64,000 nucleotides of DNA from Isurus oxyrinchus (taxonomy: Eukaryota), in NCBI GenBank assembly GCA_026770705.1, contig JANJGN010000022.1:56978001-57042000 (forward strand), written 5' to 3'. The translations under genes and the position numbers were made by a program. Positions 7,697-53,726 of the stretch are shown here, one piece after another. Each line of letters starts with the position of its first letter. Within the stretch, counting starts at the first letter, position 1. The notes below the pieces were generated by a model. It searched no databases and had not been told where the DNA came from. It was given only the letters and a program-made list of their open reading frames with translations.

Positions 7697-8202
7697 TGTT
7701 AAATAGTTCTGTGTCTAATAATATGAGTCTGTGTACTATTGATGCTCACTGTGCTTGATTAGTTAAGCCTGGGAGTGGATTCAGAGTAAAGTAAACAAAG
7801 CTGCTAGAAAGAGCTAGAAACAAAAACAAAAATAGCTGAAAAAGCTCAGCAGGTCTGATAGCATCTGTGGAGAGGAACACAGTTAATTGATTCCTCATGA
7901 CTCTTCATCAGAACTATGGAAATAGAGAAATGATGAAAAGTCATGTGGCCTTGAAACGTCAGCTGTGTTCCTCTCTGCAGATGCTGTCAGACCTGCTGAG
8001 TTTTTCCAGCTATTTTTGTTTTTGTTTCAGATTTCCAGCATCTGCAGTATTTTGCTTTTAAGAAAGAGCTAGAAGTTGAGAGCTGCAAGCATGGAGTAGA
8101 CATGTTAAAGCATTGGACAAAACTCTTATAAGTAAAGTTCCCACACAAGTAGAAACTGATGCATCATCTCTGCATATCTCTGATGCATTTAAAATATACA
8201 AC
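7697..8202. mobile_element. Probable solo LTR inserted in the Harbinger Myb exon
   Basis: AT-rich block bounded by TGTTA...CAACA. It splits the Myb/SANT reading frame between NARTQTP and CSKKFNNL. Confidence 0.5.
7820..8060. mobile_element. Palindromic Penelope-end-derived mini-element with degenerate HHR motifs
   Basis: Inverted arms ctcagcaggtctg..cagacctgctgag. Perfect 14-bp TSD AGAAAGAGCTAGAA at 7806-7819 and 8061-8074. Confidence 0.85.
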
Positions 8203-10072
8203 ATTGAAAACCTAGATATACTGCAGCAAGAAGTTCAATAACCTCATCCAAGTGGTCAAGGTCAGTGAATGCATCTTTAAATGCCAATCTGACCAATTGT
8301 TCCAGTTGCTTCAGCCACTGTTCAAATCACCACTCCTCCATTACTCACCTACCAACAACTTCTTTCAAGCAGTTCACGTCTAACATTCATAGCTCTCCCT
8401 CACCCTCACACTCATAGCACCTTTGCAAGCTTCATACCCATAACTTACAGCATGCGCGCATCATCAGCTAATCAATCAATCATGGTGCAACATCAGCCAA
8501 ATGTATTGCATGTTACTCACTGACAAATTTCTCCCCTCTCTAGCAGGAGCAGGTGGTGTACAACCAGGGGAAACTGGGACTAACTGAGGGAGAGTGGCAT
8601 ATCTCCATCTCCTAGCCCTCAAGGATGAGATGATGTTGCCCATTACTGGCACCCCTCATTGACGGAGCCATGGTCAGCAGTGGACCAGAAACCATTGAAG
8701 TTGACAGTATCCTTATATGTAATCCTCCTTCACACCCACTTCCCCCGATCCCACAATCTCTTCTGATTTACAAGCTGCAGATGGTATAAGCACATACCTC
8801 TTACTTTTTTCCTCTTCCTGCACTGCAACCTTCCATCTTCCTTTCTGATACCCAAGAGGTGCGGCCTGGCCAAGCACTCTCAAGAAGAAGCTGATGATGA
8901 AGGCACAAAACCATCACCTGTATTCACACTGGCAGCTACCTGCTCACATATTGACAGTACACATATCCTAAAGAATATCCAAAAGAATAGAATGATGTGC
9001 GATGGTGAGACACTTAGCATGAGTGGCCTACAGCCAGGGCAGGGAGCCAGGATAGCACAGGTGCCACCTTGCCAGAGGGTGAGGTCACAGATGGATTCCA
9101 GTGCAGAGGTTCAGGTGAAGACTCTGGCTGTGCAGCCTACAGAATAACATTGATGGGCATGTGCAACGAAATTCCTGGTGCAAACTAGGAAGCCTGCCAG
9201 AAAGACTACGTTCAGTGTGAACGTGCATGGTGGAGTTCAGTACCAACTTGGAACAGAGCTTTGTATAGAGTTTTGAGCCCATCCTTTCCTGTGTTGGTGT
9301 GAGGGCCAACTCCATCAGTACACTTGTGGACCCAACCATGATGCAGCAACTGATTAGTTATGTCACAGTTTCCACTGCAGCACCAGCAGCAGTCACTCAC
9401 CACCTGAGTGCTGTATTGGGAGCTCAGACTACAGTCATCATCATTGTGGATTACCATGTGCAAAGGGGCTTTGAGGGTATCACAGCAGTCCAACAACCTA
9501 TTCTCCAATTCATTTCTATGATCGCTGAAGTGACACCCAGGGGAGAGTTGTATTGCCCCCATGGAGCATAACCCTATCTCAGGGTGGTCATCCTCCCACT
9601 CCAGCCAATCCAACAGTGCCCTTGCTGTTGCTTGTCAGCCAGTCAGCCCAGAGTGTGCCACACATACTGAAATGGTGAAGGCTATTGCCAGTGCTTCTAT
9701 GTCCCCAGGTTGCTTGAGGTCATCCTGCAAAGATACCTGCAGCTTTCTCCACTGACAGTCAAAGTCTTCCAGCAGCCTCTGGGGTAGTAAAGGAGCACTG
9801 ACAGGCAAAGGCATTCAGATGTCAGGCCTGGAGAGTTGTACAAGGGTGGTTAGTTGACTTATGTAGGGAATATGGCATGATTTCACATACATTTGGTTTG
9901 GAATGTTTACTTTTTAACTGGTTTTTATTTTTGCATTGTGGCCAAGTGGACAGTGTGATGATCAGTGACAGAGGGAAGGTAACGTGTGGAACTTTTGATG
10001 GATTGAGAATTGCAGCTACTGGTATCGGATTCGGATGAGTTCTTCATGGACAGTTTCATGATAATAATTGAT

Positions 10073-10291
10073 TGTGGTAGCGGACCCCAGTATTAGATAC
10101 TATATGGTACTCTGTACTAGGAATAGGATCACCTAACCTGGGAGTTGAAGGTCAGATAGCACATATTGGAGCCTGTCTTGATGGAATTCAGTTAATGCAG
10201 ATACGTGTTCATGTTAGGAAAATGTGTTATCAGTAAAGTTAGCTCAGCTACAATATCAATGGCCTGTGTGCATCATTGAAACAAAAAAACA
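10073..10291. mobile_element. Possible solo LTR
   Basis: AT-rich block bounded by TGTGGT...AACA interrupting the Harbinger sequence. No clear TSD. Confidence 0.3.
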
Positions 10292-10408
10292 AGACAGAAA
10301 GCCCAGACAGAAAGGGGCCATCTATAAGTTTCCTCTTCCTTCTCCTCCTCTTCCTCATTCTCACCTGCTCACTGGATAGCTGGTGGAAAGGGCTGTCTCC
10401 TCATGATT

Positions 10409-11575
10409 TACATTACAATCACTAGGGAACTGGGACTGAGTAAACTGATGGAGCTGCAGGCTGACAAGTCCCTGGGTCCTGATGGACTTCATCCTAGGGC
10501 CTTCAAAGACGTCACTAATGAGGTAGTAGATGCATTGGTGTTAATTTTCCAGAATTTGCTAGATTCTGGAATATTTCTTTTGATATAAAGATTCTGGAAC
10601 AATTCCACCAGACTTGAAAGTAGCAAATATAATCTCCTCTATTCAAGAAGGGAGGGAGGCAGAAAACAGGAAACTATAGGCCAGTTAGCTTGATGTCTGT
10701 CATGGAGAAGGTGTTAGAATTGATCATTAAGGAGGTTATACTAGGCATTTAAAAAAACACAAGGTGATATGGAAGAGTTAGCATGTTTTTGTGAAAGGGA
10801 ACTCATGTTTAACCAATTTATTGGAGTTCTTTGAAGGAATAGCATGCATTGTGGATAAAGGGGAACCTGTAGACGTGTTGTACTTGGATTTCCAGAAGGT
10901 ATTTGATAAAGTGCCACATCAAAGGTTATTGCAGAAAATAGAAGCCCATGGTTTAGGGGTAACGTATTAGTGGTGGTCAATGAGACCACATCTCGAATAT
11001 TGTGTGCAGTTTTTATCTCCTTATTTAAGGAAGGATGTAAATGCATTGGAGGCGGTTCAGAGGAAGTTCACTAGATTGATACCTGGAATGAGTGAGTTGT
11101 CTTATGAGGAAAGGTGAGACAAGCTGGGCTTGTTTCCACTGGAGTTTAGAAGAGTGTGGGGTGACTTGATTGAAGTGTATAAGAACCTGAATGGTCTTGA
11201 CAAGGTGGACGTGGAAAGGATGTTTTCTCTTGTGGGTGAATCCAGAACTGGATGGGGGGGGGCGGTGGGGGAGGGTGTGGTGGGTGGGTGGGGGGTTGCG
11301 GTGGGGGGGTCACTGTTTTAAAATTAGGGGTTGCCGCTTTAGGACAGAGAGGAGGAGGATTTTTTTTCCCTCAGAGGGTTGTGCGACTTTGGAACTCTAC
11401 CTCAGAAGGTGGTGGAAGCGGGGTGGTGGAGGTCGATTCTTGTTAAGCAAAGGAATCAAAGGTTATCAGGGTAGAGGAATTTGAAAGCCATATAGATCAG
11501 TCATGATCTTATTGACTGATAGAGCAGGCACTAGAGGCTGAACGCCCTACTTCTGCTCCTATTTCGTACGTTCTT
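10409..11575 (+). mobile_element. CR1 LINE 3' fragment, internally deleted, inserted in the Harbinger transposase
   Basis: Motifs KSLGPDGLHP, NYRPVSL, VLYLDFQK and RPHLEYCVQF. CR1 tail cctacttctgctcctatttcgtacgttctt. The flanks rejoin as transposase LHNLNIMRRQP on the - strand. Confidence 0.9.
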
Positions 11576-13659
11576 ATGATGTTGAGGTTGTGCAGCACAC
11601 AGCAGACCACCAGGAATCCCGTTCGGCCAGCTACTGAAGCACTTTGGCAGACTGGTCCGGGCAGAGGAAGAACTGTTTCGGTGGCCTGACTTATCACAAT
11701 TCGCTTTGCAGAATGAATCTCATTGTATATATGCTGCTGACATGTCAGTGAGATATAGGCCAGAGTCAGCAGTCATGATAGCCCTCCAGCAGACAGGCCT
11801 GCCACCCAGTAGCCAGTTTTTGGTTTGCCATGGTGGCTGAAACCTCATGTTGCTAGGATTGCAGATTTCCCCATGGTGCCAGCTGTCATTGGTTCCATGC
11901 ACATTGCTTTGGGGGCTCCCCATACCAACTCTGCCATAGACTGGAATCGAAGGGGATTCTGCTCCCTCAACATCCAGCTGTTGATCACAGGTCAGTGCAG
12001 CCTGCGCAGTGGCCCACCCAAGAATGAAGGCATTATCACTGGAGCCAGGATACTGGGCATTAACCTGCATGACATCTCGCACACTCTTCCTCACTGATAT
12101 TCAGGCAGGAGAATTGATCGCGGTGGGGACATGGTCACCAGCTGCAGTCCTTCTCCCCCCACCTCCTTTTCCCTCTTCCAGCATCTTGTTCTGCTCTGGC
12201 TAACCTCTGCTCATTCTCCAAGAGGTATGCCTAATAGTGTACCCATGTCAGGGAGTAACTGGTTTGTACAGAAGCATTGAAGTCAGCAAAAATTTGTTCA
12301 GCTCCTGCCATACCACTCGCTGTAGATTTTTGTAAAGTGAAATAGAAAGAACAAAGCACTTGTAGAGAACCAACGACCAGAAGAAATTAACCAGCGACTA
12401 ATCTGTAATCTGTAACGAGTTGATGCTCCCTTTAAATAGAACTAGGAAGGGTGGGTGTGGTGGAGGTGATGTCCCTTCCTGCTGCTCTGTGGGGTTAAGA
12501 GAATGCATTGAGCTCCAAACTACAATGCTAGCAACAAACCAGTGTGCAACAAGTTGAACTGCTGACGCTGCATATTTCCAGCAGACGTTCACTGCACATG
12601 AGCAACACCTCGACCAGTATGGCATCTGACTTGATTCATCCCACAAATGTGCATCCCCACACTGATTGGCATTTTGGAGCCCTCGGGTCACTTACAGCAC
12701 CCACAAATGTGGCAGGTGCATCCGATTTCTCAGCCTAAGTCTCTATAATTCTTCCTCTGTCTCTTTTAATATGTTGGATATCCTATGTGCTTCTCACAAA
12801 ATATATTTTCTTATCTCCCCGTGTCTGTTTTTTACTGTCAAGTGAACCCGGAGAGTGACTTGAACTTACGCGAATGGTGTAAAATTGGCAACATTGGATC
12901 AGCCACCCCATTATACACCACTCTCCATTTCCCTTTGCAGCCTTTTCAGTACAACAGCATGTGCATATTAGCCATTGCTGTCTATCTCAGGTGTCCCTAC
13001 TGCCGGGACACTTCCCAAAACATTTTAAACGCATTTGACGTGAGGTTTCCCTCTGTAGTCTTTCACTCTTTTCACGAGGGGTACACAATGACTGCAGTCG
13101 ATGGTCACATTAATTTGAAAAGTTTAACAGATTTTCCTTAAATGACATGGAGGTTAAGGTCTGTGTGAGGTTGTTCCTGTCCTTAATTTTATAGCTCTTC
13201 AGGGTTTTTGTTGGTTTTTATAGAGAGAGGAGGATATTAGCACTTATTAAGCTGAGGGGTATTTATGTTTAAGAATCGATAATACTTTTCCCTTGTAAGC
13301 AATTACTGCAGGTGTCGCATGCTGCCTGATTGACCATTGAACAGCAGAGCACACAGTAAAACTTTGACTGCTTTCCTGCCAGGGTGGTGTGTTTCACTGC
13401 TGCTGGTGCCCATGGAGGTGAGAATAAGAAGCATTATAAAACCAGTAACAAACAAAAAGATTGCAGAGTCAGATGACAGTTTTGGCATGACTATGAGTTT
13501 TCCACACCATGAAAAAAGAATTTATTAGTATTAATGCCTGGCAACTCTTTAGCACCTACTGCTCAATTGTAGCAATTAAGGGCGGGTTAATGACACTTGA
13601 TTTTTTTTTTCACTGGTTGCAATAGACTACGCAGTGACAGATCAGACATCAGTAGTGGA

Positions 13660-14262
13660 TGAGGGACTGAGGGCATGGTTGCTAAATTTCTGCTGAAACA
13701 ATGGTAGGCAGGAAAGTAAGTTATCAAGAGGACATAAGGAGGCTACAAAGGGGTATAGATAGGATAAGTGACTGTGCAAAGATCTGGCAAATGGAATATA
13801 ATGTGAAATTGTCCAATTTGGAAGGAAGAATAAAAAAGAAGCATTTAGAGATTGCAGAGTTCTGAGATGCTGAGGGATCTGGGTGTCCTATTGCATGAAT
13901 TGCAAAAGGTTAGTATGCAGATACGGGAAGTAATTAGGAAAGCTAATAAAATGTTATACTTTATTGAGAGAAAAATTGAATACAAAAGTAGAGAGGTTAG
14001 ACTTCAATTATACATTGGTGAGACCACATCTGGAGCACTGTGTACAGCATTGGTCTCCTTATTTAAGGAAATATGTAAATGCATTGGAAGCAGTTCAGAG
14101 AAGGTTTACTAGACTAATACCTGGAATGGGCGGGTTGTCTTATGAGGAAGGGTTGGACAAACTGGGCTTATTTCCATCAGAGTTTAGAAGAGTGAGGGGT
14201 GACTTAACTGAAGTATATAAGATCCTGAACGGTCTTGACAAGGTAGATGTGGGAAGGATATT
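13660..14262 (+). mobile_element. CR1 LINE ORF2 fragment
   Basis: LRDLGV and TLVRPHLEHCVQHWSPYLRKYVNALEAVQRRFTRLIPG. Confidence 0.9.
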
Positions 14263-14325
14263 CAAATGGCACCTGTGCAGAGCTTTGTCAATGTCTGCAG
14301 CCCAGGACTGCCACAGGTGAGAAAG

Positions 14326-18797: not shown

Positions 18798-18982
18798 CAA
18801 AAACAGAAAATGCAGGTAAATCTCAGCAGGTCTAACAGCATCTGTGGAGTTAAGGTTTCAAGTTCATATGACTCTTCTTCATCTGAAGAAGAATCATTCA
18901 CACTGGAAACCTTAACTCTGTTTCTCTCTCCACTTGCTGAGATTTTCCAGCATTTTCTGTTTTTGTTTCAGATTTCCAGCAT
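18798..18982. mobile_element. Degenerate palindromic Penelope-end mini-element
   Basis: Inverted arms (ctcagcaggtc / gctgagattttccagc) around ctgaagaagaatc...gaaaccttaact. Confidence 0.75.
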
Positions 18983-19180
18983 TGTCATTCGTTATTTGAA
19001 TTGTTACTCGAATTGTTATTTGCTATTTCTTTGTAACTAGTAGCTCCCACGATTCAAGAGGAGACATCATCGATGCAAACGTGTATTCAATTGACAGTGC
19101 CTTTGTTGGGTCAGGCCCATCCCATCAACTTTGGCATATGGCAGCACCTGCCAGTGCAAAAGCAGCAGGGTTTCTATTAA

Positions 19181-19325
19181 TATAAAATAAAATACTGCAG
19201 ATGCTGGAAATCTAGAACAAAAACAAAAATACCTGGAAAAACTCAGCAGGTCTGACAGCATCTGCGGAGGGGGAGACAGTTGACATTTTGAGTCCGTACG
19301 ACCCTTCATCAGAACTAAGACATAA
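19181..19325 (-). mobile_element. Single Penelope 3'-end copy with HHR-like motif
   Basis: The minus strand reads AGTT-CTGATGA-A-GGGTC-GTACG-GACTC-AAAAT-GTC-AACT. 11-bp TSD GTTTCTATTAA at 19170-19180 and 19326-19336. Confidence 0.85.
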
Positions 19326-22836: not shown

Positions 22837-23110
22837 GAGGTCTTGTGGTGCAGTGGGTAGCGTCCCTGCCTCTGAGCTGGAAGCTCTGGGTTTGAGTCCC
22901 ACCCCAGGACTTAATGGCCAAGCAAAGTGTGTTCATAACACAGCCAATCAGGTTAATTATCAACCTGCAAATCCTTCCAACACATGGCAGCTGGTAAGAG
23001 TGGGAGAGATCCCTGGTCAGCCTTGTGATGGAAAGAATGTTGGAGCCGTTACCTTCGCTATTTATAGCTCCGGACCACAACATGCATCCGGATCGCCAGG
23101 TGAAACTGCC
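22837..23110 (+). mobile_element. tRNA-derived SINE
   Basis: A-box tggtgcagtgg and B-box ggtttgagtcc, followed by a non-tRNA body. Confidence 0.65.
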
Positions 23111-25000: not shown

Positions 25001-25154
25001 AATTGTATGCCAGTAATGTAGAGATCACAGTATACCATGTTTTTTCTTCTGATTTCTAGCATCCACGGTATTTTGCTTTTATTTTATGTCAGATTATAAG
25101 ATCCTTTATACTTATAAGGTACAATCCAAAAATTTTAACTCAAGGCATTTTACA

Positions 25155-38783: not shown

Positions 38784-39075
38784 TATGGTAATCTGAGGTG
38801 TAATACACCTTTAAGAGAATGTGAGCAGATTGACCACGTGACTGAAATACCCAATAGCTGTGTAGTGCGGGCTACCATGTTAATGTTAGTCTAGAGTAGG
38901 GTCTGGCTGGAGAAACACATATCATGTTAGTGCTCTGTTGGTTGTGTAAATAAATAGTATGTGCTTCATTTCATATTGGTCTCTGCATCTGCTGTATATT
39001 GTAATCGACTCACCTGCCGACAGATAAACATGCAACCGGTTCACAAGCAAAGCCACCCCGTGGTAGAACATAACA
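38784..39075 (+). repeat. 5' LTR
   Basis: Direct repeat of 43183-43474, about 23 substitutions by hand count, and containing AATAAA. Confidence 0.92.
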
Positions 39076-39177
39076 ACTGACAATGAGGCAAAACATGACC
39101 AATTGACGACACCAAGGAAAGCTGTGAAAACTCAACTGTCATGAATCAGCCGTGCCCTGTGGCGATTGTAAGTCGCC

Positions 39178-40082
39178 CATAAGACCTTAAGACGTAGAAG
39201 CAGAAATAGGCCTTTTGGCCCATCAAGCCAGCTCTGCTATTCAATGAGATCATAGCTGATCTGATAATCCTCAACTCCACTTTCCTGCCTTTTCCCCGTA
39301 ACCCTTGATTCCCTTACTGATTAAAAACCTGTCTATCTCAGCCTTGAATATACTTAATAACCCAGCCTCTACAGCCCTCTGTGGGAAAGAATTTCACAGA
39401 TTGAAATCCCTTCTTATCTCTGTTTTAAATGGGCAACCCCTTACTCTGTGATTATGCCCTCTGGTCCTAGACTCTCCCACAAGGGGAAACAACCTCTCAG
39501 CATCTACCCTGTAAACCCTGAAGAATCTTATATGTTTCAATAAGGTCGCCTCTCATTCTTCTAAACTCCAATGAGTACAGGCCCAACCTACTCAACCTCT
39601 CCTCATAAGAAAATCCCTCCATATCCGGGATCAATCTAGTGAACCTTCTCTGGACTGCCTCCAATGCCAGTATATCTTTCCTTAGATAAGGGGACCAAAA
39701 CTGTTCACAGCATTCTAGGTGTGGTCTAATTAGTGCCTTGTATAGCTTTAGTAAGACTTCCCTATTTTTAGACTCCATTCCCTTTGAAATAAAGACCAAC
39801 ATTCCATTTGCCTTCCCTATTACCTGTTGAAAATGTATGTTAGCTTTTTGGGATTCATGCATGAGGACCCCCAAATCCCTGTGCTGCAGCTTTCTTCAGT
39901 CTTTCTCCATTTAAAAAGTATTCAGCTCCTCTATTCTTCCTGCCAAAGTGCATAACCTCACACTTTCCCACATTATATTCCAACTGCCACATTTTTGCCC
40001 ACTCACTTAACCTGTCCATACCTCTCTGTAGACTCTTTGTGTCACCCTCACCATTTGCCTTTCCACCTATTTTTGTGTCATT
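39178..40082 (-). mobile_element. CR1 LINE fragment nested in the LTR element
   Basis: DTKIGG and LYKALIRPHLECCEQFWSPYLRKDILALEAVQRRFTRLIP, plus a CR1 tail. Confidence 0.92.
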
Positions 40083-40142
40083 GCTATTGTACATTACAAC
40101 TGTAAGCCCTTACCATAGTCATCGGAGTTATTTCCCTCCAGT

Positions 40143-41895
40143 ATGCCACAATTTGGCCATATCAAACTGTTTGATCAGGCCACTGATGACTGGTCACATT
40201 ATATTGAACACCTTGCATTTTTCTTTTTAGCCAACAACATATCGGGGGAGGAGAAGAGGCGAGCGATCCTCTCATCGACATGTTGCAGTAAAACGTTTGG
40301 CCTAATTGGTAGTCTAAAGGCACCCAACACCCCAGATTCCAAGAGCTTTGACGAGTTGGTGAATCTTGTGAAAACCACTTTCAGCCAAAACCCTTGGTAA
40401 CAAAGCAGTGCTTTAAGTTCAATTCGAGATGTCGTGCTCCTGGAGACAGTCACTTGCTGTGTAGCAGCCTTAAAACAATTGACAGAGCAACTGTGAGTTC
40501 AGGATGTCGATTAACGACATGTTAAGAGACCGATTAGTGTGTGGGATTAACAAAGACGCCATTCAAAAAAGGTTGTGTCAGAAACAAATTTAGACTTCAG
40601 CAAGGCGCTGGAGTTGGCGCTGGCAATGGAGACCACGGTCAGGGACTCAGAAGAAATCAAGGGAGCACAAAATGGCGCCATCCTTCACATCGGGAGGGAG
40701 GCACCAGCTAGAAATGACGCGGAAACTCAGGGCTCCGCGGAAAGGTGGGAAACAGCCACCATTAACACACCAGCGAAAAGCAATGGCTTAACGGATAAAA
40801 ACTACATTAATAATGGCAGAATTGGAACCAGGCGGCCTACAAACGAACAACAATTTAAAAGAACCAAGTATTTCTACTGCCATCGCAATGGGCACATTAT
40901 GCGATATTGTAAAGAAAGATTGAGGCCAAATTACAAACAAAAAGGCCGAAGCCGTGAAATTTATATAACGAAGGAACCAGAAGAAACAGAGTCAGATGTT
41001 TACTCGCTGCACAACTTAAAAATGGGTAAAACAAAGCCAATCTACGTGACATTAGAAGTCAACAGAAAACCCCTTCAAATGCACGACAGGCGAAGGGGAA
41101 CACCTTTAATTATCTGAATGGAGGAGGTCACTCACTAAAGCTGGAAAACTCAGATGCCAAACTAAAGACATATACTGGCGAAAACATACAAGTAAACGTT
41201 GAATACAAGAGCAGGGAGGTTATGCTGGAAGTGTATAAAACGTTGGTTGGGCCACAACTGCAGTTCTTTGTGCAGTTCTGGTCACCACATTTTAGGAAGG
41301 ACATGATTGCACTGGAGACAAGATTTACCAGGATGCTGCCTGGGCTGGAGGGTCTGAGCTATGAGGAAAGATTGCATAGACTGGGGTTGTTTTCCTTGGA
41401 GCAGTGAAGGTTGAGAGGGGACCTGATAGAGGTGTACAACATTATGAGGGGCATAGATAGGATGGATTGGAAGGCACTTTTTCCATTAGTAGAGGGGTCA
41501 ATAACCAGGGGGCATAGATTTAAGATAAGAGATAGAAGACTAAGAAGGGAGTTGAGGAGAAAGGTTTTCACCCAGAGGGTGGTGGGGAGTCTGGAGCTCA
41601 CTGCCTGAAAGGGTGGTTGAGTCAGAAACTCTCATAACCTTTAAGAAGTATTTAGATATTCACTCACATTGCCACAGCCTCCAGGGCTATGGGCCAAGTG
41701 TTGGAAAGTGGGATTAGTGTAGTCAGATCTTTGTTGATCAGTGCGGACACAATGGGCTGAATGGCTTCCTTCTGTGCTGTAAATGTCTATGAGTTTATAA
41801 AAGGTTCCAGTACAATATGGAAACCAGTCTGCTAACCTACCCCTTATTGTGATAGGCACAGGGCTGAGTCTCCTTGGAACAAACTGGTTAACAGA
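40143..41895 (+). pseudogene. Gypsy gag (zinc knuckle) plus retropepsin, frameshifted and split by a CR1
   Basis: FDQATDDWSHYIEHL.FFFLANNI..EKRRAIL, LRDRLVCGI and FYCHRNGHIMRYC (decayed CCHC). Protease pieces PIYVTLEVN..., KLKTYTGENIQV and, after the CR1, VPVQYGNQSANLPLIV..SLLGTNWL. Confidence 0.85.
41198..41795 (+). mobile_element. CR1 LINE 3' fragment nested in the protease
   Basis: VYKTLVGPQLQFFVQFWSPHFRKD, RGDLIEVY and KVFTQRVV, with tail ttctgtgctgtaaatgtctatg. Confidence 0.9.
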
Positions 41896-41959
41896 GACCA
41901 GTCGGAGAGATTACTGAAATCTCAATCAGAAGCAGGGAGTGTTGCTGATGGGAAGAAGG

Positions 41960-42458
41960 AGCAGGTAAAGACTCCAAAAGGAACTCGTAGAGCTGATGCT
42001 TCAGGACAGAGTTTGAGTTGAAGTCAGTGACCTCCAAAAAGAAAAAGAAAACCTGCTAAAGGACTTTCGCATGTTGCAAGATTCCCTCAGATCCCAATTT
42101 GTATCACTAAAAGGGTATGAGGAAGAACAGAAAGAGTTCAGCATATCTCTGACTGAGATGAGGAATTAATTAGCTGAGAAAGCACTACAGGAGACAACTA
42201 ACAAATATAAAATATTTGGGAGAACTGAAGAACCAGCTACATGGAAGCCAAGAAGCTTTAAAGATAGAGACCCCTGAGTTTTCAAAGGAGCTGACAGATG
42301 AGGAAATGGTGGAAGACTCAACCACCGAGTTCACTCAAGTTGAGCTCATACCTGAGCCTAGCCTGGCCAATAGGGATGTGGAAGAGGAAGCCGAGATTAA
42401 AGTCAGCGCTGCCAAGAAGGAAACCCATCAAAAGAAGACACGTAGGAAGAGAAAGTGA
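41960..42458 (+). pseudogene. Coiled-coil/acidic ORF remnant in the pol position of the LTR element
   Basis: RLQKELVELML..*VEVSDLQKEKENLLKDFRMLQDSLRSQFVSLKGYEEEQKEFSISLTEMRN*LAEK..., then GELKNQL...KKTRRKRK*. No RT or integrase motifs. Confidence 0.5.
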
Positions 42459-42550
42459 AATTACTAACAAGGCCCCGAAATTTTTTTACGCAACAGGAAG
42501 CTGATCACTTTGTGTTGCATTTAGCCTTGCCCAACATCCTAACCCTCAGA

Positions 42551-42788
42551 TAAAAGCAAAATACTGCGGATGCTGGAAATCTGAAACAAAAACAAAAATT
42601 GCTGGAAAATCTCAGCAGGTCTGACAGCATCTGTGGAGAGGAAGACAGAGTTAATGTTTTGAGTCCCTATGACTCTCCTTCAGAACTTCTGATGAAGAAT
42701 CATACAGACTCGAAACGTTAACTCTGTCTTCCTCTCCACAGATGCTGTCAGACCTGCTGAGTTTTTCCAGCAAATTTTGTTTTTGATT
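42551..42788. mobile_element. Palindromic Penelope-end mini-element with HHR motifs
   Basis: Inverted arms of ~100 bp. TSD ctaaccctcaga (42539-42550) / ctaactctcaga (42789-42800). Confidence 0.88.
42685..42723 (+). ncRNA. Minimal type I hammerhead ribozyme-like motif
   Basis: CUGAUGA-A-GAAUC/AUACA/GACUC-GAAAC-GUU-AACU. The canonical core is intact and stem II has one mismatch. Confidence 0.6.
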
Positions 42789-43182
42789 CTAACTCTCAGA
42801 ACCTGTCTGACAGTTGCCTTTCATATTGTTGAACTAGGAGGGGAGGGGCTACATAAGTGCAGGAGGATAGGGCCTGAAAAAGAGTGAAAACATTCCCGTT
42901 GGAGTCTACACCACAGATGGAAGGAACTCCTCTTGCTTTGGAAGTACCTGTAGTACCCATAGAGCCTGGGAGAGCCGAAGAGGAAACTTACAGGTTCCTA
43001 CTGGGGAGCCTAGTGGACAGATAACTCCTGAAAGGAAGGCCTCAGATAAAGCATCCGAAGTCGTAGAATTAAGACGATCGATAATTTTGAAAAAGCCTCA
43101 TGAGAGACTGAATTTGTAAATAGTTCACTTTTGTAAATAGTTAATATATTGTAAAATGTACCTTCAAGTATAGGGGGAGGGA

Positions 43183-43474
43183 TGTGGTAATCTGAGGTGT
43201 AATACACCTTAAAGAGAATGTGAGCAGATTGACCACATGACTGAAATACCCAATAGCTGTGCAGCGCGGGCTACCATGTTAATGTTAGTCTAGAGTAGGG
43301 TCTGGCTGGATAAACATACATTATGTTAATGCTCTGTTGTTTGTGTAAATAAATAGCAGGTCCTTCATTTCATATTGGTCTCTGCGTCTGCAGTATATTG
43401 TAATCGACTCACCGGCCGACAGATAAGCATGAAACCAGTTCACAAGCAAAGCCACCCCGTAGTAAAACATAAGA
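43183..43474 (+). repeat. 3' LTR
   Basis: Begins with TG immediately after the PPT at 43172-43182. Direct repeat of 38784-39075. Confidence 0.92.
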
Positions 43475-44821: not shown

Positions 44822-44975
44822 TCTGAAGAAGAGTCCTATGGATTCTGAAGGAATACAGACTTGAAACGCTAACTCTTGTTTCTCTCTCCACAGATGCTGC
44901 CAGACCTGTTGAGAGTTTTTCCAGCATTTTCTGTTTCCATTTCAGATTTCCAGCAACCACAATGTTTTGCTTCTA
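44822..44975 (+). mobile_element. Penelope 3'-end copy with a rearranged HHR-like motif
   Basis: ctgaagaagagtc...gacttgaaacgctaact followed by cagatgctgccagacctg...gatttccagca. Confidence 0.75.
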
Positions 44976-45422
44976 TTAAGATACTCCCTTTTTTGTCAAA
45001 TGTACAGGCTTCATTCTTAAAACAGACAAATTTATGCAAATATTGTACCGGTTTCATTATACTGCAGCTTGGCATGTGTTTAGTGTAACACCGGGCTGGC
45101 AAAGTTGAACTGCACTGTCATGGAAGAACGAGTACGGTTAGCACTATAGATTGGAGACTTAATAACATCAGCCAATATCGTCAGTGCACATTTCTAACTT
45201 AGCAACCTTGGAATTTCATCTTCTTAAACACCTGACGGTGGTACCTCTTTAAGTACCAGTTTACTGCATGGAGCTGCAAACTATTCAGCAGGATAACATT
45301 CATAAATTCAATGTGCCTGTACTGCCTGAAGGTTTTCTTTATTTTAATGAAAAATGGTGGAGCTTTGATTAAACTGGCTCCAGTTAAATTTTGACGACTC
45401 TCTCTCTCTCTCTCTTTTCAAG

Positions 45423-45490
45423 GCTTCTCCTCGACACAACCGAATGATGTAGAAACTGGGCGGTTCAGCCTGATTTCACCTGCCTCATAA
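45423..45490 (+). other. Candidate short terminal exon, phase 1: (G)FSSTQPNDVETGRFSLISPAS*
   Basis: Branch-like ttgac, (CT)n tract and AAG acceptor at 45422. The frame is open with retained CpGs, has TAA at 45488 and is followed by AATAAA at 45502. Confidence 0.3.
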
Positions 45491-47269
45491 ATCTTCAGCA
45501 AAATAAATGCTGCTCCATTTTCCTTGTCTCCCCTCTCCTTTGTGGTGATAATGCACATTAGCAGCTGCCTGGCTGCACCCTTTCATGAGACAATGAGGTG
45601 AGGCAAGAAGAAACATTAGCATTGAGGCCCAGGAAACTTTTACTGTTGTGCGGCTGGATGCTTCAGAGATGAGTTCGGCACAGTGAGATGTTTTAAAGAA
45701 AGGCATTGCAGAGAGAAATGAATACTGCAGACATTGCCTGGATACTTGCTGAGCAGATTTAATTCAACTATGTTACAATTTATAGTACGTAAACTTCCGA
45801 CTGAGAATTTTGTTTCATAACTTTTAAATGTAATAAATAACATATTGATTACAATTGGATTCATAAAACCAGCATATCCCACACAGATGAAGTTTCAGTG
45901 TATCTTCCTTTTTCTATTATAACAGGTGCAAAAATTAATCAAAACTGTTCATTTAAAATGATCCAAGTGAATCGCTAAGGACATTTGTGGAGATTACTTT
46001 AAAACAGCAGCTATCAGGTGCCCCCTCTTAGTAAAAAGTTTGTAAATCGTGTTGCATTGGCCTCTTTGCTTTCAAATTGCTCGATATTAATGTTGTTTTA
46101 GAAAGTCCCTCTCTGAAAGTGCCACCAAAAACATGTTCCATGTGTGGTAGTGAAACGATGCAGATAGTACAAACTGGCGGAACAGGTGACTATTTTCATT
46201 CTACCTCTCACTCAACTCCCCATTAAAAAGAACTTGGGGTGAACAAAAGTTCACCTGAATTAATGATATGACTTGCCCCACCCCACCCCCTCCCAGTGCA
46301 GCAGATGGAAGGACCTTGGGGACCTGGACTTTGCTGCTCAATGGCACCATGTGAGGTCTCATTCTTTCGGGAAGGTGCCACGCGGCAGGAGGTAAACGGT
46401 GCAGTATTCTTATAACAACACAGAGGAATTACCTCAACATCACTGAAACACAGTCAGGCAAAACCAAACTCCCATCTCATTTTGCTGCACTTCGCCACAA
46501 GAGTCGGTCATTTGTCAGATTTTGCAAGGTAGAGTAATCCTCACACAAGGTAAATTAGTGGATGCTATAAAAAAAAAGGTTTATAATCAACAAAAAAAAC
46601 CTACCAGAGATTTATTTTGTCCACAAACACATGCATTCCAACAGCCGAGGATAATTAAATGTCAAACACTGGTCAAACACTAGGGAACGCTAGAGGGCAG
46701 TGTAATGGTGCTGTCTGTTGGAGGACTGATGCTCCATACCATGGAGTAGAGTGGTCCTTGGCTGGATCCCCATGTTGCTTGTTTCCTGATTGGAGTCCCT
46801 CAGAGCAGCGGCTTTTGATTCTCACTGTTAGGGTGAAGAAAAAGCAAGGGGGGTCAGTGCAGTACCAAGTGCCTCCTGGTAAATAGCTACTGGCTGAACA
46901 AGCTGCTCAGCAGCCCTTTTGGTACCAGAAGAACTAAGCTAATTAGATTCAAGCACCAGGAGACAAGTTAGCTTGAAAAAAAATCATCTGAAGATAAATT
47001 ATATAGACAACGGAGGATTTTTTTTCCTTTCTTTTGCTATGCTAGTTGATTTCCTTTGGTGTTTAACATATGTAATCCAGGTAAGGTACAGTACAGGCTG
47101 GGGGTAAAGTGGACCAAGATGCACAGCTATAACTCAGGCAACATTTTAAAGTCATACATTTTTGCCCTTCATTTTATGTAATCCTTTAATTTTATTTCAT
47201 TGTTTATGGTTTAGCAATCATCTGGTGTGACTGAAGCACATCATGCACTATGTATGGGCCCTTGTTCGC

Positions 47270-48608
47270 TGCCAACACTGTTTACAACACTAGGATTATT
47301 CTGAAAAGCAAGGTAGCCCCTGACTCCTTTCTTCCGCTACTGGACATCTATTTAAACTCCTTTCTCCTGTCCTCTCTATCCTACCCTCCTACAACAAGTG
47401 TAAGGAGCTCATGGTTTCCTTTGCCGCTAAGATTGAGACCATCCATTCAACTGCCTCTCCACAGCCTGTCATACTTCACCTTGCTCAAAAAGCTAGCCCT
47501 CCCAAGGATGAGCCAGCCTTATAGAACCATAGAAAAGTTACAGCGCAGAAAGAGGCCATTCAGCCCACCGTAACTGTGCCAGCCAAAAAAGAGAAACTAG
47601 TTGCTCATTGTAATTCCATGTTCCAGCACCTGGTCCGTAGCCTTGCAGGTTACAGCACTTCAGCTGCAGATTCAGGCACCTTTTAAATGAGTTGAGCATT
47701 TCAGCCTCAACCACCGACTTAGGCAGTGAATTCCAAACACTCACCACCCTCTGGGTGAAAAAGATTTTCTTCACCTCCCCTCTTATCCTTCTACCAATCA
47801 CCTTAAATTTATGCACCCTGGTAATTGACCCCTCAGCTACATCCTTCCTTCTACCCTATCTAGGCCCCTCATAATTTTGTACACCTCAATTAGGTCACCC
47901 CTCAGCCTCCTCTGTTCTAAGGAAAACAATCCTAGCCTATCCAATCTTTCCTCATAACTGCATTCCCTGAAATGCATCTTTATCTTTTTTTCTATCTCTT
48001 CCCATGCCCTCTCTAGTCTTGTCCATCAGACCCAACTCCTGTTCTCTGGACCCCATTCCTATTAAGCTGCTAATTGCCCTATTTCCTTTTCTGGTCCCCA
48101 TGTGAGATGATATTATAAATGGTTCCCTCTCCTCACCCCACCCCTCCCCCACCCTCGTTCAAAACTCTTCATCAACATCCACTTCAAAAAAACTCTTGTC
48201 CTTACAAATTACCATCCTATCTCCAACCTTCATTCTTCTTAAGTCCTTGAGAGCAGTGGCACTTTGCAAATACGTGGCCATCTTTCCTATATCTACAATC
48301 AAGTTTCCACCCTGTCATTGCACTGAAATGGCATTAACTCAAGTCACAAATATCACCTGTGACAGTGGCCATGGTGCCATGTTCTTCTTGACCTTTCTGC
48401 AGACTTTGACATAGTTGACAGTACCATCCTTCTCCATGCCTCTACTCCATTGTCCAAATCTGAGGGGCTTCCCTCTTCGAGATATCCAGCCATAACCTAT
48501 ACAATCTTCAGTAATAGCTTTTCTAAATGTCCTGACTCATCATCTCTAGATTGTCTCAAGGATCTATCCTTGATCCCCCATCTACATGCTCCCCCACTGC
48601 AACATCAT
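47270..48608 (+). mobile_element. Old L2-type LINE ORF2 fragment, split by a CR1
   Basis: Decayed motifs PNSCSLDPIP, NYHPISNL, HCTEMAL, LDLSADFDIVD and SQGSILDP. Confidence 0.7.
47520..47968 (-). mobile_element. CR1 LINE 3' fragment
   Basis: HKFKVIGRRIRGEVKKIFFTQRVVSVWNSLP, with tail ttctatggttctat. Confidence 0.88.
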
Positions 48609-48610
48609 CA

Positions 48611-50175
48611 AGGCAAATCATGTTAAACCAATTTATTGGAGTTCTTTAAAGAAGTAACATGTGCTGTAGATAAAGGGGAGCGGTGGATGTACTGTACTTA
48701 GATTTTCAGAAGCCATTTGCTAAAGTGGCACATCAAAGGTTATTGCAGAAAATAAAAGTTCATGGTGCAGAGGGTGACATATTGGTATGGAGAGAAGATT
48801 GGCTAGTTAACAGGAAGCAGACAGTAGGCATAAAAGGCTCATTTTCTGGTTGGCAGAATGTGATGATTGGTGTGCCACAGGGATCAGTGCTGGGGCCGCA
48901 ACTCTTTTAAACTACAATTTATATAAATGACTTGGATGAAGGGACCAAATAAATTTGCTGATGACACAAAGATAGGTAGGAAAGTAAGTTGTGAAGAGGA
49001 CATAAGGAGGTTACAAAGGGATGTAGATATGTTCAGTGAGTGGGCAAAGATCTGGAAAATAGAGTATAATGTGGGAAAATGTGAAATTGTCCATTTTGAC
49101 AGGAAGAATAAAAGAGAAGCATATTATCTAAATGGTGAGAGATTGCAGAGCTCTGAGATGCAGAGGGATCTGGGTGTCCTAGTGCATGAATCACAAAAGG
49201 TTAGTATGCAGGTACAGGAAGTAATTAGGATGGTTAATAGAATTTTATCCAAAACAGAATTACCTGGAAAAACTCAGCAGGTCTTGCAGCATCGGCGGAG
49301 AAGAAAAGAGTTGACGTTTTGAGTCCTCATGACCCTTCGACCGAACTGAGTTGACGTTTCGAGTCCTCATGACCCTTCGACCGAACTGAGTTTGGTCGAA
49401 GGGTCATGAGGACTCGAAACGTCAACTCAGTTCGGTCGAAGGGTCATGAGGACTTGAAACGTCAACTCTTTTCTTCTCCACCGATGCTGCCAGACCTGCT
49501 GAGTTTTCCCCAGGTAATTCTGTTTTTGTTTTGGATTTCCAGCATCTGCAGTTTTTTTGTTTTTATCAATAGAATTTTATCGTTTACTGTGAAGGGAATT
49601 GAATACAAAAGTAGGGAGATTATACTTCAGTTATACAGGGCATTGGTGAGACCACACCTGGAGTACTGTGTACAATATTGGTCTCCCTATTTAAGGAAGG
49701 ATATAAATGTATTGGAAGCAGTTCAGAGAAGGTTTACTAGATTAATACCAAGGACCTTGGGATTCTTGTCTCCACTGAAGTTTAGAAGAGTAAGAGGTGA
49801 CTTGATTGAAACATATAAGGTCCTGAGGGGCCTTGACAAGGTGGATGTGGAGATGATGTTTCCTCTTGTGGGAGAATCTAGAACTGGGGGGTCACTGTTT
49901 AAAAATAAGGGATCGCCCATTTAAGACAATGATGAGAGAATGTTTTTCTCTCAGAGGGTGGTGAGTCTTTGGAACTCTCTTCCCCAAAAGGAGGCGGAAG
50001 CAGAGTCTTTGAATATTTTTAAGGCAACGGTAGAAAGATTCATGATAAACTAAGGGGTGAAAGGCTATGGGGTTGGGCGGGAATGTCGAGTTGAGGTTAC
50101 AATTAGATCAGCTATGAATTATTGAATGGCGGAGCAGACTCAAAGTGCTTTACTCCTGCTCCTAATTCATACGTT
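48611..50175 (+). mobile_element. CR1 LINE 3' fragment (RT domain to tail)
   Basis: VDVLYLDFQK, GVPQGSVLGP, KFADDTKIG and LYRALVRPHLEYCVQYWSP. Interrupted by the insertion at 49250-49567. Confidence 0.93.
49250..49567. mobile_element. Palindromic Penelope-end mini-element with four 40-nt HHR-like units
   Basis: Perfect 14-bp TSD AATAGAATTTTATC (49236-49249 and 49568-49581). Units at 49308-49347 and 49348-49387 (-), and 49389-49428 and 49429-49468 (+), with a 1-nt centre at 49388. Confidence 0.92.
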
Positions 50176-50999
50176 TGTCGACATGCAGTCATTCTACATT
50201 TATACTGAAGTCACCCAGCTTACCTCTTCACCATATATCACCCAACCCCTACACCCCCCAGGATGAGTTACAAGAGGAAGCCTGAAGTCATTAACTTCAG
50301 CCCCTGATGCACACCATCGATCCCATCCTATTCTTCACATGCAAGCCTTGACGATGAGGAGGAGAAAGGTGTATTGTTGTTAAATATGGGTGAATGCCAA
50401 TACCATGAGAACAAGAGAATAATATTGAAAATGAGAGTGATGGGAAATCTTTGATGATCACTCAATCTTTAATTGTAGAACAAAATTTTGGCACTTTTGA
50501 AAATCAAGGAGACTAATTTCAGTGGGATTTCTGATTGGTATGCTCAACTGTTGCACTGTGATCTGTAATAATACATAAGGCAGCTCTGTAATAACACACA
50601 ACACATTATTTAAACTATGTTTGCAATTTAAGTGCCTTGACAGTCCCTTTGAATCAATTTGGCAAGTTGCACAGAGCACCTCATCCCGATGGTCCAAGCA
50701 GGAACTTTCAAATCTATTTGTTTTAGGAAGACTGTCATTTCCTTGATCTGCTGACCACCCAAAGGTCAGAATCTTTTTGTACTTGAATCACCCATTACCT
50801 CCTAGCTGATGTTAAAAGATGCCCAGGAGTGTTCCCAGATAGATTTGTTTATAAAACAGTTAAAGATGGTTCCAATTTGCAGTCATATATAGGTATTTCT
50901 AACCAAAGCTTTTCTTTCCTAACTTTTCAAAATAATAATTAGAATTGGATCCGTAAATCCAGACATTGTAACCATTTATTACACTTGGAAACTCTCACC

Positions 51000-51208
51000 A
51001 AGCATTCCTTTTGGTTTGTGATTTGATGTAATCATCTTCAGTTCCCTGTCCAAAGCCTGGTGTGACCCACAGCACCATAACCTCCACCGTGGGTAGGGAA
51101 GCAAGTCCACCCAAATCTACCCCAGTCAGAATGGGGCTCAAACCCCAATGCTGTAGACACCAATCTGATTCATAACTGACCATCCAGCCAACTGAGCCAA
51201 CCAACCCG
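51000..51208 (-). mobile_element. tRNA-derived SINE, degenerate
   Basis: On the minus strand, tggctcagttgg (A box) and ggtttgagccc (B box). Confidence 0.5.
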
Positions 51209-51429
51209 GCTGAGGAGCCCGAGTTGCTGTGTCAACCTATGTTCTCACATGCACCTTGTAGCCTGGAGCTATGGATAGTGACCGGAGAGTCTCCAATTTC
51301 TTCTCATCACACGGCTGACCAGGAATCTCTCCCGCTCTGACATGTGTTGGAAGGACTTGATATGACCTAATGATTTAAAATGAACAACACTAAGAATACA
51401 AAAGCAAAATGCTGCAAATGCTGTGGATG

Positions 51430-51650
51430 AACAACAACTTGCATTTATTTAGAGTCTTTAATGTTGTCAAACATTCCAAGGCACTTCACAGGAGTGTTAA
51501 CAAACAAAAGGTGACACTGAGCCACACACTGCGATATTCAGACCAAAAGCTTGGTCCAAGAGATAGGTTTTAAGGAGTGTTTTACAGAAGGAAAGTAAGG
51601 TAGAGAGGCGGAGAGGTTTAGAAAACAAATTCCAGAGCTTAGGGTCTCCG
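51430..51650 (-). mobile_element. L2-type LINE 3' end
   Basis: aacaacttgcattt...ccaaggcacttcacagg...ggagaggtttag..ttccagagcttaggg. The tail resembles that of the Deu-SINEs. Confidence 0.6.
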
Positions 51651-52159
51651 TAGCGGAACGTCACTTTAAAATGTTAACTTTACAGATTCTCCTTTCTGAA
51701 GAGTTCATTAAGAGTTTTCTATTGATACCCAGTTACTTCGATGAATATTTCCATTGATACTCACCTCTGTCTACATAGATTTGAAGAGTGAACTTGCACG
51801 TATTTGTTTGAGGCCTTAAATCAATGTTGTTTTTTCAAATATATTACATGTTACATGCTTTCTCGTAAAAGTTTCACTTTTACATGTGGAACAATCTTGT
51901 GAATGATATAATTTGCATTGAAAATTGGAAGGAATGAGGGAATGAGTGAAGAAACAAAATTGAACAGTAAAAGGTTGTGAACTGCAGCAACAAACATGGA
52001 ATAAAATGTGCATCTCAGTGGCCTGTGCATGTATGGGGTCATTTTCTCCATTTGCATTCAAACATTGCCCCTAAACTCCCCCTACTGGCTGATAGTGGGA
52101 ATGAATTCCTGTTCTTTCTACGGTGTGGATCTTCCTGGCGAAGGAAGGGGTTGTCTGAT

Positions 52160-53726
52160 AAAAACAAAAAAAACTGCGGATGCTGGAAATCCAAAACAAA
52201 AACAGAATTACCTGGAAAAACTCAGCAGGTCCGGCAGCATCGGCGGAGAAGAAAAGAGTTGATGTTTCGAGTCCTCATGACCCTTCGACAGAACTTGAGT
52301 GAGTCCAAGAAAGGGGTGAAATATAAGCTGGTTTAAGGTGTGTTGGGGGGGGGGGTTGGGGGGGAGGTGGGGTTTGGGTGGGGGGAGAGAGAGAGAAGTG
52401 GAGGGGGGGTCTGGTTGTAGGGACAAACAAGCAGTGATAGAAGCAGATCATCAAAAGATGTCACAAACAACAGAACAAAAGAACACATAGGTGTTAAAGT
52501 TGGTGATATTATCTAAACGAATGTGCTAATTAAGAATGGATGGTAGGGCACTCAAGGTACAGCTCTAGTGGGGGTGGGGGGAGCATAAAAGATTTTAAAA
52601 TATTTAAAAATAATGGAAATAGGTGGGAAAAGAAAAATCTATATAATTTATTAGAAAAAAACAAAAGGAAGGGGGAAACAGAAAGTGGGTGGGGATGGAG
52701 GAGGGAGCTCACAACCTAAAGTTGTTGAATTCAATATTCAGTCCGGAAGGCTGTAAAGTGCCTAGTCGGAAGATGAGGTGTTGTTCCTCCAGTTTGCGTT
52801 GGGCTTCACTGGAACAATGCAGCAAGCCAAGGACAGACATGTGGGCAAGAGAGCAGGGTGGAGTGTTAAAATGGCAAGCGACAGGGAGGTTTGGGTTATT
52901 CTTGCGGACAGACCGCAGGTGTTCTGCAAAGCGGTCGCCCAGTTTACGTTTGGTCTCTCCAATGTAGAGGAGACCACACTGGGAGCAACAAATACTAAGT
53001 TGGGGGAAATGCAAGTGAAATGCTGCTTCACTTGAAAGGAGTGTTTGGGCCCTTGGACGGTGAGGAGAGAGGAAGTGAAGGGGCAGGTGTTGCATCTTTT
53101 GCGTGGGCATGGGGTGGTGCCATAGGAGGGGGTTGAGGAGAAGGGGGTGATGGAGGAGTGGACCAGGGTGACCTGGAGGGAACGATCCCTATGGAATGCC
53201 GATAGGGGGGGTGAAGGGAAGCTGTGTTTGGTGGTGGCATCATGCTGGAGTTGGCGGAAATGGCGGAGGATGATCCTTTGAATGCGGAGGCTGGTGGAGT
53301 GATAAGTGAGGACAAGGGGGACCCTATCATGTTTCTGGGAGGGAGGAGAAGGCGTGAGGGCGGATGCGTGGGAGATGGGCCGGACACGATTGAGGGCCCT
53401 GTCAACCACTGTGGGTGGAAAACCTCGGTTAAGGAAGAAGGAGGACATGTCAGAGGAATTGTTTTTGAAGGTAGCATCATCGGAACAGATGTGACGGAGG
53501 CGAAGGAACTGAGAGAATGGGATGGAGTCCTTACAGGAAGCGGGGTGTGAGGAGCTGTAGTCGAGGTAGCTGTGGGAGTCGGTGGGTTTGTAGTGGATAT
53601 TGGTGGACAGTCTATCACCAGAGATTGAGACAGAGAGGTCAAGGAAGGGAAGGGAAGTGTCAGAGATGGACCACGTGAAAATGATGGAGGGGTGGAGATT
53701 GGAAGCAAAATTAATAAATTAATAAA
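52160..53726 (-). mobile_element. Penelope-like retroelement, 5'-truncated (RT C-terminus, GIY-YIG endonuclease, HHR-bearing 3' end)
   Basis: CSQCGLLYIGETKRKLGDRFAEH...PVACHFN...RKLEEQHLIFRLGTLQPSGLNIEF and FLNRGFP..RVPLVLTYH. TSD TTGTCTGAT at 52151-52159 and 53727-53735. Confidence 0.95.
52257..52295 (-). ncRNA. Minimal hammerhead-like motif with variant core CUGUCGA
   Basis: AGUU-CUGUCGA-A-GGGUC/AUGAG/GACUC-GAAAC-AUC-AACU, with stem I formed by AGUU/AACU. Confidence 0.5.

Follow-up and report, generated by a model that had tools for sequence, protein, structure and literature searches.

A sequence of about 135 bp that forms the HHR-plus-tail end of a GIY-YIG Penelope-like element (PLE) recurs on its own in a 64,000-nt stretch of Isurus oxyrinchus DNA (hereafter the window), four times as a head-to-head palindrome. 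The locus raises the question of how such short units were made, and whether the hammerhead ribozyme (HHR) within them determines where they end. These repeats are very short PLE insertions, and they have the known PLE layout.

Anatomy of the short copies

The window contains four head-to-head palindromes and two single copies, all six at the positions given by an earlier, sequence-only reading of this DNA, along with a tail-only fragment (Table 1). That reading had credited four copies with their own TSDs of 11–14 bp, which were recovered at 7820, 19181, 42551 (with one mismatch) and 49250. TSD length is variable (9, 11, 12, 14 and 14 bp in five of eight events, including the long PLE), and none was found at the three other events searched, i.e., 18798, 44822 and 25038. 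In a control at 300 random sites, counting exact matches only, no exact repeat of at least 11 bp occurred, and repeats of 9–10 bp occurred in 4/300.

Table 1. Features of the PLE family in the window; inner ends are given relative to the HHR core base C3.
Feature	Position	Strand	TSD	Inner end(s)	Remarks
Head-to-head palindrome	7820..8060	.	7806-7819/8061-8074, 14 bp exact	about -19 and +1	92 nt from C3 on the left, no distal tail; 131 nt on the right, tail-bearing
Decayed head-to-head palindrome	18798..18985 (right limit approximate)	.		+1 and -1	short left arm; partial tail on right arm
Single copy, full tail	19181..19325	-	19170-19180/19326-19336, 11 bp exact	-13	
Tail-only fragment, 45 bp	25038..25082	+			without HHR; seventh copy, absent from the earlier reading
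Head-to-head palindrome	42551..42788	.	42539-42550/42789-42800, 12 bp, 1 mismatch	-3 to -5 and -2	centre ~42686; tail on left arm (133 nt), none on right (100 nt)
Single copy with tail	44822..44978	+		about -1	HHR partly tandem-duplicated
Head-to-head palindrome	49250..49567	.	49236-49249/49568-49581, 14 bp exact		centre 49388; arms of 94 nt (left, short) and 135 nt (right, tail-bearing); in each, the HHR is a tandem pair of 40-bp units with non-canonical core
5′-truncated EN+ PLE, 1.57 kb	52160..53726	-	52151-52159/53727-53735, 9 bp		Neptune/Nematis-type linker
Remnant ORF	52709..53718	-			RT thumb, CX4CxxC linker, GIY-YIG; frameshift near 52990
Minimal type I HHR motif of PLE end	52257..52295	-			C3 at 52291, cut predicted after 52261; core CUGUCGA instead of CUGANGA
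Segment 3′ of HHR	52160..52256	-			two 3′ termini: short near 52193-52199, long near 52160-52168

As had been claimed, the HHR-like motif adjoins the inversion centre in all four palindromes and lies at or near the inner end of both single copies. The distal tail is present on exactly one arm of every palindrome (4/4), giving arm length differences of 39, 33 and 41 nt, with tail and difference only partial in 18798; the tail is also present in both singles and in the long PLE. The same one-sided tail layout has been illustrated for published PLEs (PMC8557442, Fig. 2 legend), and an inverted pLTR 37 bp shorter than its partner, with the tail on one side, has been described (PMC3846280). The copies here thus resemble the EN+ PLE insertions of both studies in the head-to-head inverted, 5′-truncated pLTR and the one-sided 30–40-bp tail, as well as in the variable-length TSD, the strong 5′ truncation and the HHR in the pLTR. 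They differ in that only the pLTR end is inserted and in that the inner ends cluster at the HHR 5′ edge, a pile-up for which no published quantification was found in the literature searched. Nothing about the element itself is unusual: published work already covers PLE ends bearing an HHR, motifs standing alone, pairs on opposite strands, inverted copies and tails on one side only. UCON13 was also considered as a possible palindromic PLE derivative, which was not confirmed, PMC5753468 only listing UCON13 as Penelope.

The copies had been described as the same sequence as the PLE end, which holds closely for 49250 (94–95% identical) and less so for the others (72–80%). At least two PLE subfamilies are represented among the insertions; 49250 is the sole copy from the subfamily of the PLE at 52160-53726, and partner arms of the older subfamily are alike at 84–90% only. 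Both subfamilies share the same anatomy, and the one with a non-canonical core still forms centred palindromes.

The long element

The proposed link to a Penelope-like element was supported, and 52160-53726 encodes an RT thumb and a GIY-YIG domain. The remnant ORF aligns to aa 556–886 of an 889-aa RT+GIY-YIG relative at 48–49% identity; aa 1–555 are absent and the RT core is missing. Because of this loss, the frameshift and a TSD of its own that bounds it, the PLE is not autonomous. It was therefore rejected as the autonomous partner of the short copies, only 49250 being of its subfamily. A CX2-5CxxC motif in the RT–EN linker defines the Neptune/Nematis clades (PMC8557442), and CX4CxxC is present in the translation, which gives a tentative placement by linker motif. 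A first label, Poseidon, was dropped because of this linker. In EN+ PLEs the ORF start overlaps with the pLTR/tail. Here, one of three tail frames searched gave two matches, neither of them a PLE ORF, and no full-length chondrichthyan N-terminus was present in the 6 proteins examined of the 120 listed.

State of the ribozyme

What had been called an HHR-like motif proved to be a genuine minimal HHR, in which 86% of stem cells pair, against 15–49% in slid controls. It resembles the minimal metazoan PLE HHRs (PMC4209133) in being type I with a 4-bp stem I, a 5-bp stem II with a bulged base and no true stem III (a palindromic ACGU), and in occurring as solo motifs and close opposite-strand pairs. 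However, every unit here is broken at one position or more. A strict intact descriptor (CUGANGA, GAAA, UH, paired stem I) gave no match on either strand of the window, and both HHR boxes are kept in only 2 of 13 units, both with broken stems, i.e., all units are decayed; the younger subfamily has U instead of A6. The covariation in stems I and II suggested as a check amounted to one two-sided change and one A-U/G-U alternation among 12 related units, which is not significant (123 of 500 shuffles scored as high). Rfam returned no hammerhead family at E<=1, the miRNA matches reflecting hairpins, and the five sense strands folded with z from −0.83 to +0.82, showing no structure more stable than shuffles. 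Searches for further copies gave no match in one search of viral contigs and 25 chance matches in another (the longest 18 nt), 9 matches in metagenomes (none past 33 nt), and none in genome contigs or plasmids.

Where the copies end

Relative to C3, the 10 inner ends all fall between −19 and +1, 8/10 of them within −5 to +1. The HHR cut site is at +31, and the inner ends are thus 30–50 nt 5′ of the cut; the copies therefore keep the HHR core, which a cleaved template would lack. As the sequence-only reading had held, the ends near the HHR are non-random: 6/8 tail-bearing events end within 21 nt, with a simulated, post hoc P of about 1e-3 to 2e-5 that rests on 8 events in one window. The ribozyme cut does not set copy length, since the copies stop just outside the decayed HHR and not at the cut site. 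The likeliest cause of the pile-up at the HHR 5′ edge would be an end of the template RNA at this point, or the joining of two cDNAs by a local mini-palindrome. Such a mini-palindrome, GAACT-TG-AGTTC, lies directly against stem I in contigs of the family and agrees with the centre of 49250; it was not seen in the older subfamily.

Contigs of the DNA run X1 showed two clusters of 3′ loose ends, at 52168 (623) and 52193 (301). Depth in this run (summed contig depths, not copy numbers) dropped from 19–30 million over 52193-52285 to 5.7 million in 52286-52316, with 5.3–8.7 million over the 3′ UTR bins 52410-52657. There is thus a step at the HHR 5′ edge, possibly inflated by faster 3′ UTR divergence at the 80% cut-off, a 2-nt indel at 52299 and a nearby G-rich tract, and none at the cut (22.0 vs 19.0 million). 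In X15, which is possibly RNA, the ORF bins reached up to 2.65 million versus 1.55 million on the tail, so that the tail excess is absent; runs X21 and X22 are unrelated organisms matching the poly-G tract only. A candidate intron with an AG|TTCTG end, like that in D. virilis, was considered, and no splice ends were found among the 15 joints listed (there were 208 further joints).

A proposed priming model for the stubs

The best explanation, which we consider probable, is that these are ordinary EN+ PLE insertions of two or more subfamilies that copied only the terminal pLTR and tail. The GIY-YIG/RT protein would nick both strands of an AT-rich target, here 9–14 nt apart judging from the TSDs, and reverse transcription would begin at two internal RNA sites ~35–40 nt apart, both steps being taken over from in vitro work on another PLE. 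In the copies here, priming at the distal site yields the tail-bearing arm, and the second, inverted arm invariably stops at the proximal site; synthesis traverses the whole HHR and halts at or just past its 5′ edge. One cDNA joined to the target may then give a single copy, two cDNAs joined by 1–5 nt of microhomology a palindrome, and a jump back onto the RNA the tandem HHRs seen in 49250 and in 44822; the HHR would be a passenger whose cut does not set the end.

For Poseidon of Anolis (PAc, PMC11167929), two RT start sites with extension on both strands were reported in vitro. PAc is similar to the present family in its two 3′ termini, which lie a tail-length apart ~95–135 nt downstream of the HHR core, and in internal initiation of reverse transcription, AT-rich targets and apparently dispensable HHR cleavage. 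However, the PLE here differs in its CX2-5CxxC linker, a Neptune/Nematis feature missing from Penelope/Poseidon.

It is conceivable, if unlikely, that the stubs record a particular step of the PLE cycle. The template RNA's 5′ end would be fixed at the outer edge of stem I, and a dimeric PLE protein would prime both target strands on two separate RNAs, one of them always from the distal start and its partner from the proximal one, and join the run-off cDNAs; the stubs would then be a product like the retroviral "strong-stop", inserted before the jump that gives full-length copies. If so, cartilaginous-fish genomes, where stubs appear abundant, would make inverted-pLTR formation testable by counting. 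Both this process and the role of the HHR have been called unresolved (PMC8557442, PMC11167929).

Alternative explanations

Fold-back self-priming, the model of Arkhipova et al. 2013, survives best among the alternatives, and we regard it as a credible though not a favoured reading. The origin of the second arm is the only point on which it departs from the priming model: the cDNA (or an antisense template) would fold over on itself where a short palindrome lies at the HHR edge and serve as its own template, with the endonuclease resolving the product at the proximal site. Both arms of 49250 share the 40-bp tandem HHR and a CGGUCGA core around a centre consisting of a 4–5-bp stem with a 1-nt loop, tail differences are fewer between partner arms (13/172) than between non-partners (228/1472), and palindromes at inverted junctions have been reported (PMC3846280). 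However, in the three older palindromes the HHRs of partner arms differ at 20/86 positions, like unrelated ones (189/726), and at 10/64 versus 102/538 when CpG columns are left out. Moreover, partner arms share 0, 1 and 1 private letters, no more than non-partner pairs, and the centres of 7820 and 18798 are not clean hairpins. Ends at about −5 to +1 from C3 provide a sharp, countable landmark for telling two-template priming and fold-back apart.

The earlier reading had also put forward a short HHR-bounded RNA as the real mobile unit; such an RNA or a circular one, whether retrozyme-like or a non-autonomous family with a master copy, appears improbable in that role. In its favour, the window has short copies and the long PLE at a ratio of 6 to 1, retrozymes derived from PLEs have been proposed, including in one chondrichthyan genome (10.64898/2026.07.22.740005), and the 40-nt tandem HHR of 49250 has a cut-to-cut repeat form. 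The non-LTR retrozymes (PMC7229834; 10.64898/2026.07.22.740005) are likewise non-coding, with a type I HHR and kinship to PLE pLTRs. However, they form head-to-tail HHR-bearing arrays expressed as short linear and circular RNAs, whereas the units here are single or head-to-head with TSDs, and only the 40-bp tandem of 49250, with its non-canonical cores, resembles theirs; the window contains no tandem of the 135-bp unit and no head-to-tail complete HHRs. No copy runs from HHR to HHR, the motif being at one end of the unit only, and the ends miss the cut sites. Every centre and inner end differs, and the four differing palindrome centres mean that no master palindrome was copied. The anatomy common to both subfamilies and the lack of any strictly intact HHR in the window also speak against such an RNA.

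We consider it very improbable that the palindromes were once longer and were trimmed by central deletion of unstable inverted repeats, the survivors stopping at the HHR by chance. With CpG columns left out, the arms do differ more towards the centre (10/64 in the HHR against 9/166 in the tail, P=0.017). However, the singles form no hairpin and yet stop at that same point, 19181 with its TSD intact, and deletions striking the centre at random would have no preference for a single 21-nt window.

Least probable of all is the earlier suggestion that self-cleavage or structure at the HHR sets where reverse transcription ends or switches template. The ends are non-random and near the HHR, and the left arm of 49250 also allows a reading in which it starts precisely at the cut of a third tandem unit, at the AACUC that follows it; its tandem units could fold as a dimer (dimeric HHR cleavage is credited to Lunse et al. 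in the review PMC6765202). However, 10/10 arms keep at least 30 nt 5′ of the nearest cut, X1 depth has no step there, and HHR-dead mutants insert normally in vitro with no RNA reads beginning or ending at the cut (PMC11167929). The stubs thus argue against cleavage as the terminator.

Host elements and relative age

The copies had been placed inside a CR1, an LTR element and a solo LTR as a young layer. The putative solo-LTR host of 7820 starts with TGT and ends with ACA, but shows neither a clean TSD nor a further copy within the window. The two other hosts were verified, and the layer is young relative to these only, given how far the partner arms of the older subfamily have diverged. Palindrome 42551 sits between two LTRs (~38786-39077 and ~43183-43472) that are 92.7% identical. 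Palindrome 49250 splits a LINE with a weak RVT_1 match only, a putative CR1 judging from its peptide, and two other copies can be aligned with the empty site over the junction.

Copies and hosts

Self-comparison of the window recovered every copy of the Penelope-like element (PLE) end named in the sequence-only reading, together with a seventh family member, a 45-bp tail-only fragment. The target-site duplications (TSDs) claimed for four copies stood (14, 11, 12 with one mismatch, and 14 bp), with 300 random control sites giving no exact repeat of at least 11 bp; 18798, 44822 and 25038 showed no TSD. 49250 is the sole copy in the PLE subfamily, with 94–95% identity to the PLE end, and the other arms show 72–80%. 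Nesting was confirmed for 49250 in a LINE and 42551 in an LTR element, and the claimed solo LTR is a candidate host. LINE fragments as well as the 42551 palindrome break up this LTR element, which has 92.7% identical LTRs, a polypurine tract and what we take to be a gag-like remnant (no Pfam hit).

Coordinates and ends of features (inner end, the 5′, hammerhead-ribozyme (HHR)-side end of an arm, in nt from HHR core base C3)
Feature	Position	Inner end(s)	3′ end
Palindrome 7820	7820–8060	about −19 and +1	one arm 39 nt short
Palindrome 18798	18798–18985	about +1 and −1	decayed; shortening partial
Single copy 19181	19181	about −13	long
CPEB3-like match	22904–22978 (+)		
Repeat shared with CPEB3-like match	51249–51359		
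Tail-only fragment	25038–25082		
LTR element	38786–43472		
gag-like remnant (presumed)	near 40119–40397		
Palindrome 42551	42551–42788	about −3 to −5 and −2	one arm 33 nt short
Single copy 44822	44822	about −1	long
Partial tandem HHR duplication	44822–44870		
Palindrome 49250	49250–49567	about −4 and −4	one arm 41 nt short
Tandem HHR units	49303–49473		
Long PLE	52160–53726 (−)		long
CUGUCGA core	52285–52291 (−)		

The long PLE, proposed as the autonomous partner, proved to be a dead truncated copy, since its first 555 residues are missing, a frameshift lies near 52990 and it has its own 9-bp TSD. Its remnant ORF aligns to aa 556–886 of an 889-aa RT+GIY-YIG protein (48–49% identity), and its closest named relatives come from cartilaginous fishes, which makes the host, too, probably a cartilaginous fish. 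It contains the CX2-5CxxC linker, which PMC8557442 assigns to Neptune and Nematis.

Ends of the stubs

The stubs are a real feature. With each insertion counted once, the inner ends of 6 of 8 tail-bearing events fall inside a 21-nt stretch, a width picked after seeing the data; the simulated chance of such clustering is 1.4 × 10−3 under a uniform 200-nt null and at most 2 × 10−4 under longer uniform or exponential nulls. The ends are non-random. All ten inner ends lie at about −19 to +1, and the predicted HHR cut is 31 nt past C3 (27 nt in the deleted 7820 left arm). In contigs of the DNA sequencing run X1, depth dropped at the HHR edge from 19.0 million (bin 52255–52285) to 5.7 million (bin 52286–52316) and was nearly level on the two sides of the cut (22.0 and 19.0 million), these being summed contig depths possibly biased by 3′ UTR divergence, an indel or a G-tract. 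A tail-over-ORF excess was absent from the depth of X15, possibly an RNA run. The tight clustering of ends just beyond the ribozyme is the one aspect that merits a genome-wide count.

The 3′ ends face outward in all four palindromes, with one arm shorter than the other. Two loose-end clusters, at 52168 (at least 623) and 52193 (at least 301), occur on this side among the X1 loose-end entries listed (24 of 1690). The asymmetry is the optional 30–40-bp tail that PMC8557442 and PMC3846280 describe on one end of inverted PLE insertions. In PMC11167929 such tails are attributed to two internal RT start sites, both target strands being cut and extended. Element type, HHR, inverted layout and tail are already known; targeted searches of the mainly open-access literature found no paper mapping stub ends against the HHR or reporting such stubs in sharks.

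Origin of the stubs

The stubs most likely arose as PLE insertions in the following way. RT would start within the first terminal repeat (pLTR) of the transcript, cDNA synthesis would run off close to the RNA 5′ end, the other target strand would prime a second cDNA at the proximal start site, and short microhomology would join the cDNA ends; alternatively, RT may jump back, duplicating the HHR (49250, 44822). PMC6765202 and PMC2377424 place the start of PLE transcripts within the upstream pLTR. Tail asymmetry, end positions and the differences among centres are observed directly; we infer the RNA 5′ end as the stop, and likewise the two-template step.

On whether the second arm arose from a second template or by fold-back, the evidence points both ways. 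In the older palindromes, the HHRs of partner arms are as divergent as those of unrelated copies (20/86 against 189/726; without CpG, 10/64 against 102/538), but in the tail partners resemble each other more than unrelated copies do (13/172 against 228/1472); both arms of 49250 share a duplication. Partner-arm divergence in 7820, 18798 and 42551 is far greater in the HHR than in the tail; the use of two templates, conversion affecting the outer stems, or mutations close to the centre might each account for this.

HHR self-cleavage or structure had been proposed to set where reverse transcription ends or switches template, or else a short HHR-bounded RNA to be the mobile unit. The strongest point for this reading is 49250, whose arms contain 40-bp HHR units in tandem and whose left arm can be read as beginning directly after a cut; a GAACT-TG-AGTTC mini-palindrome adjoining stem I in family contigs explains these letters equally well. 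A cleaved template is disfavoured because it would begin at +32 and yield copies without the core, which 10 of 10 arms retain, and HHR mutants leave insertion unchanged in vitro (PMC11167929). The fold would also be a poor stop signal, since RT, moving 3′ to 5′ on RNA, has unwound the entire HHR before −4. Retrozymes form head-to-tail arrays (PMC7229834, 10.64898/2026.07.22.740005), whereas no such array of the 135-bp unit was seen in the window. A master mini-element is unlikely because the centres differ in all four palindromes.

The HHR motif

The motif is an HHR of the minimal type I class set out in PMC4209133, which also reports solo motifs and close opposite-strand pairs. Its named stems are paired in 86% of cells (15–49% in slid controls), covariation is no higher than in shuffles (123/500 as high), and a strict descriptor matches none of the units in the window. 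In the younger subfamily, as represented here by the long PLE and 49250, U replaces the conserved A6 (CUGUCGA), and 49250 additionally carries U4G. Each arm of 49250 has two tandem units, and their junction repeats an AACT/AGTT mini-palindrome, fitting RT jumping back at the HHR edge. The inner unit of the second, partial duplication, at 44822, resembles the 42551 right arm. Rfam gave a sub-threshold CPEB3 (HDV-like) ribozyme match (E = 0.0023; 28.2 bits, with the gathering cut-off at 35) overlapping a recurring repeat. The first ~47 residues of predicted protein P0039 are a translation of HHR and tail, and the rest presumably resembles a TLE/Groucho-type protein (no Pfam hit); P0039 may represent a PLE end that was either exonised or mis-predicted.
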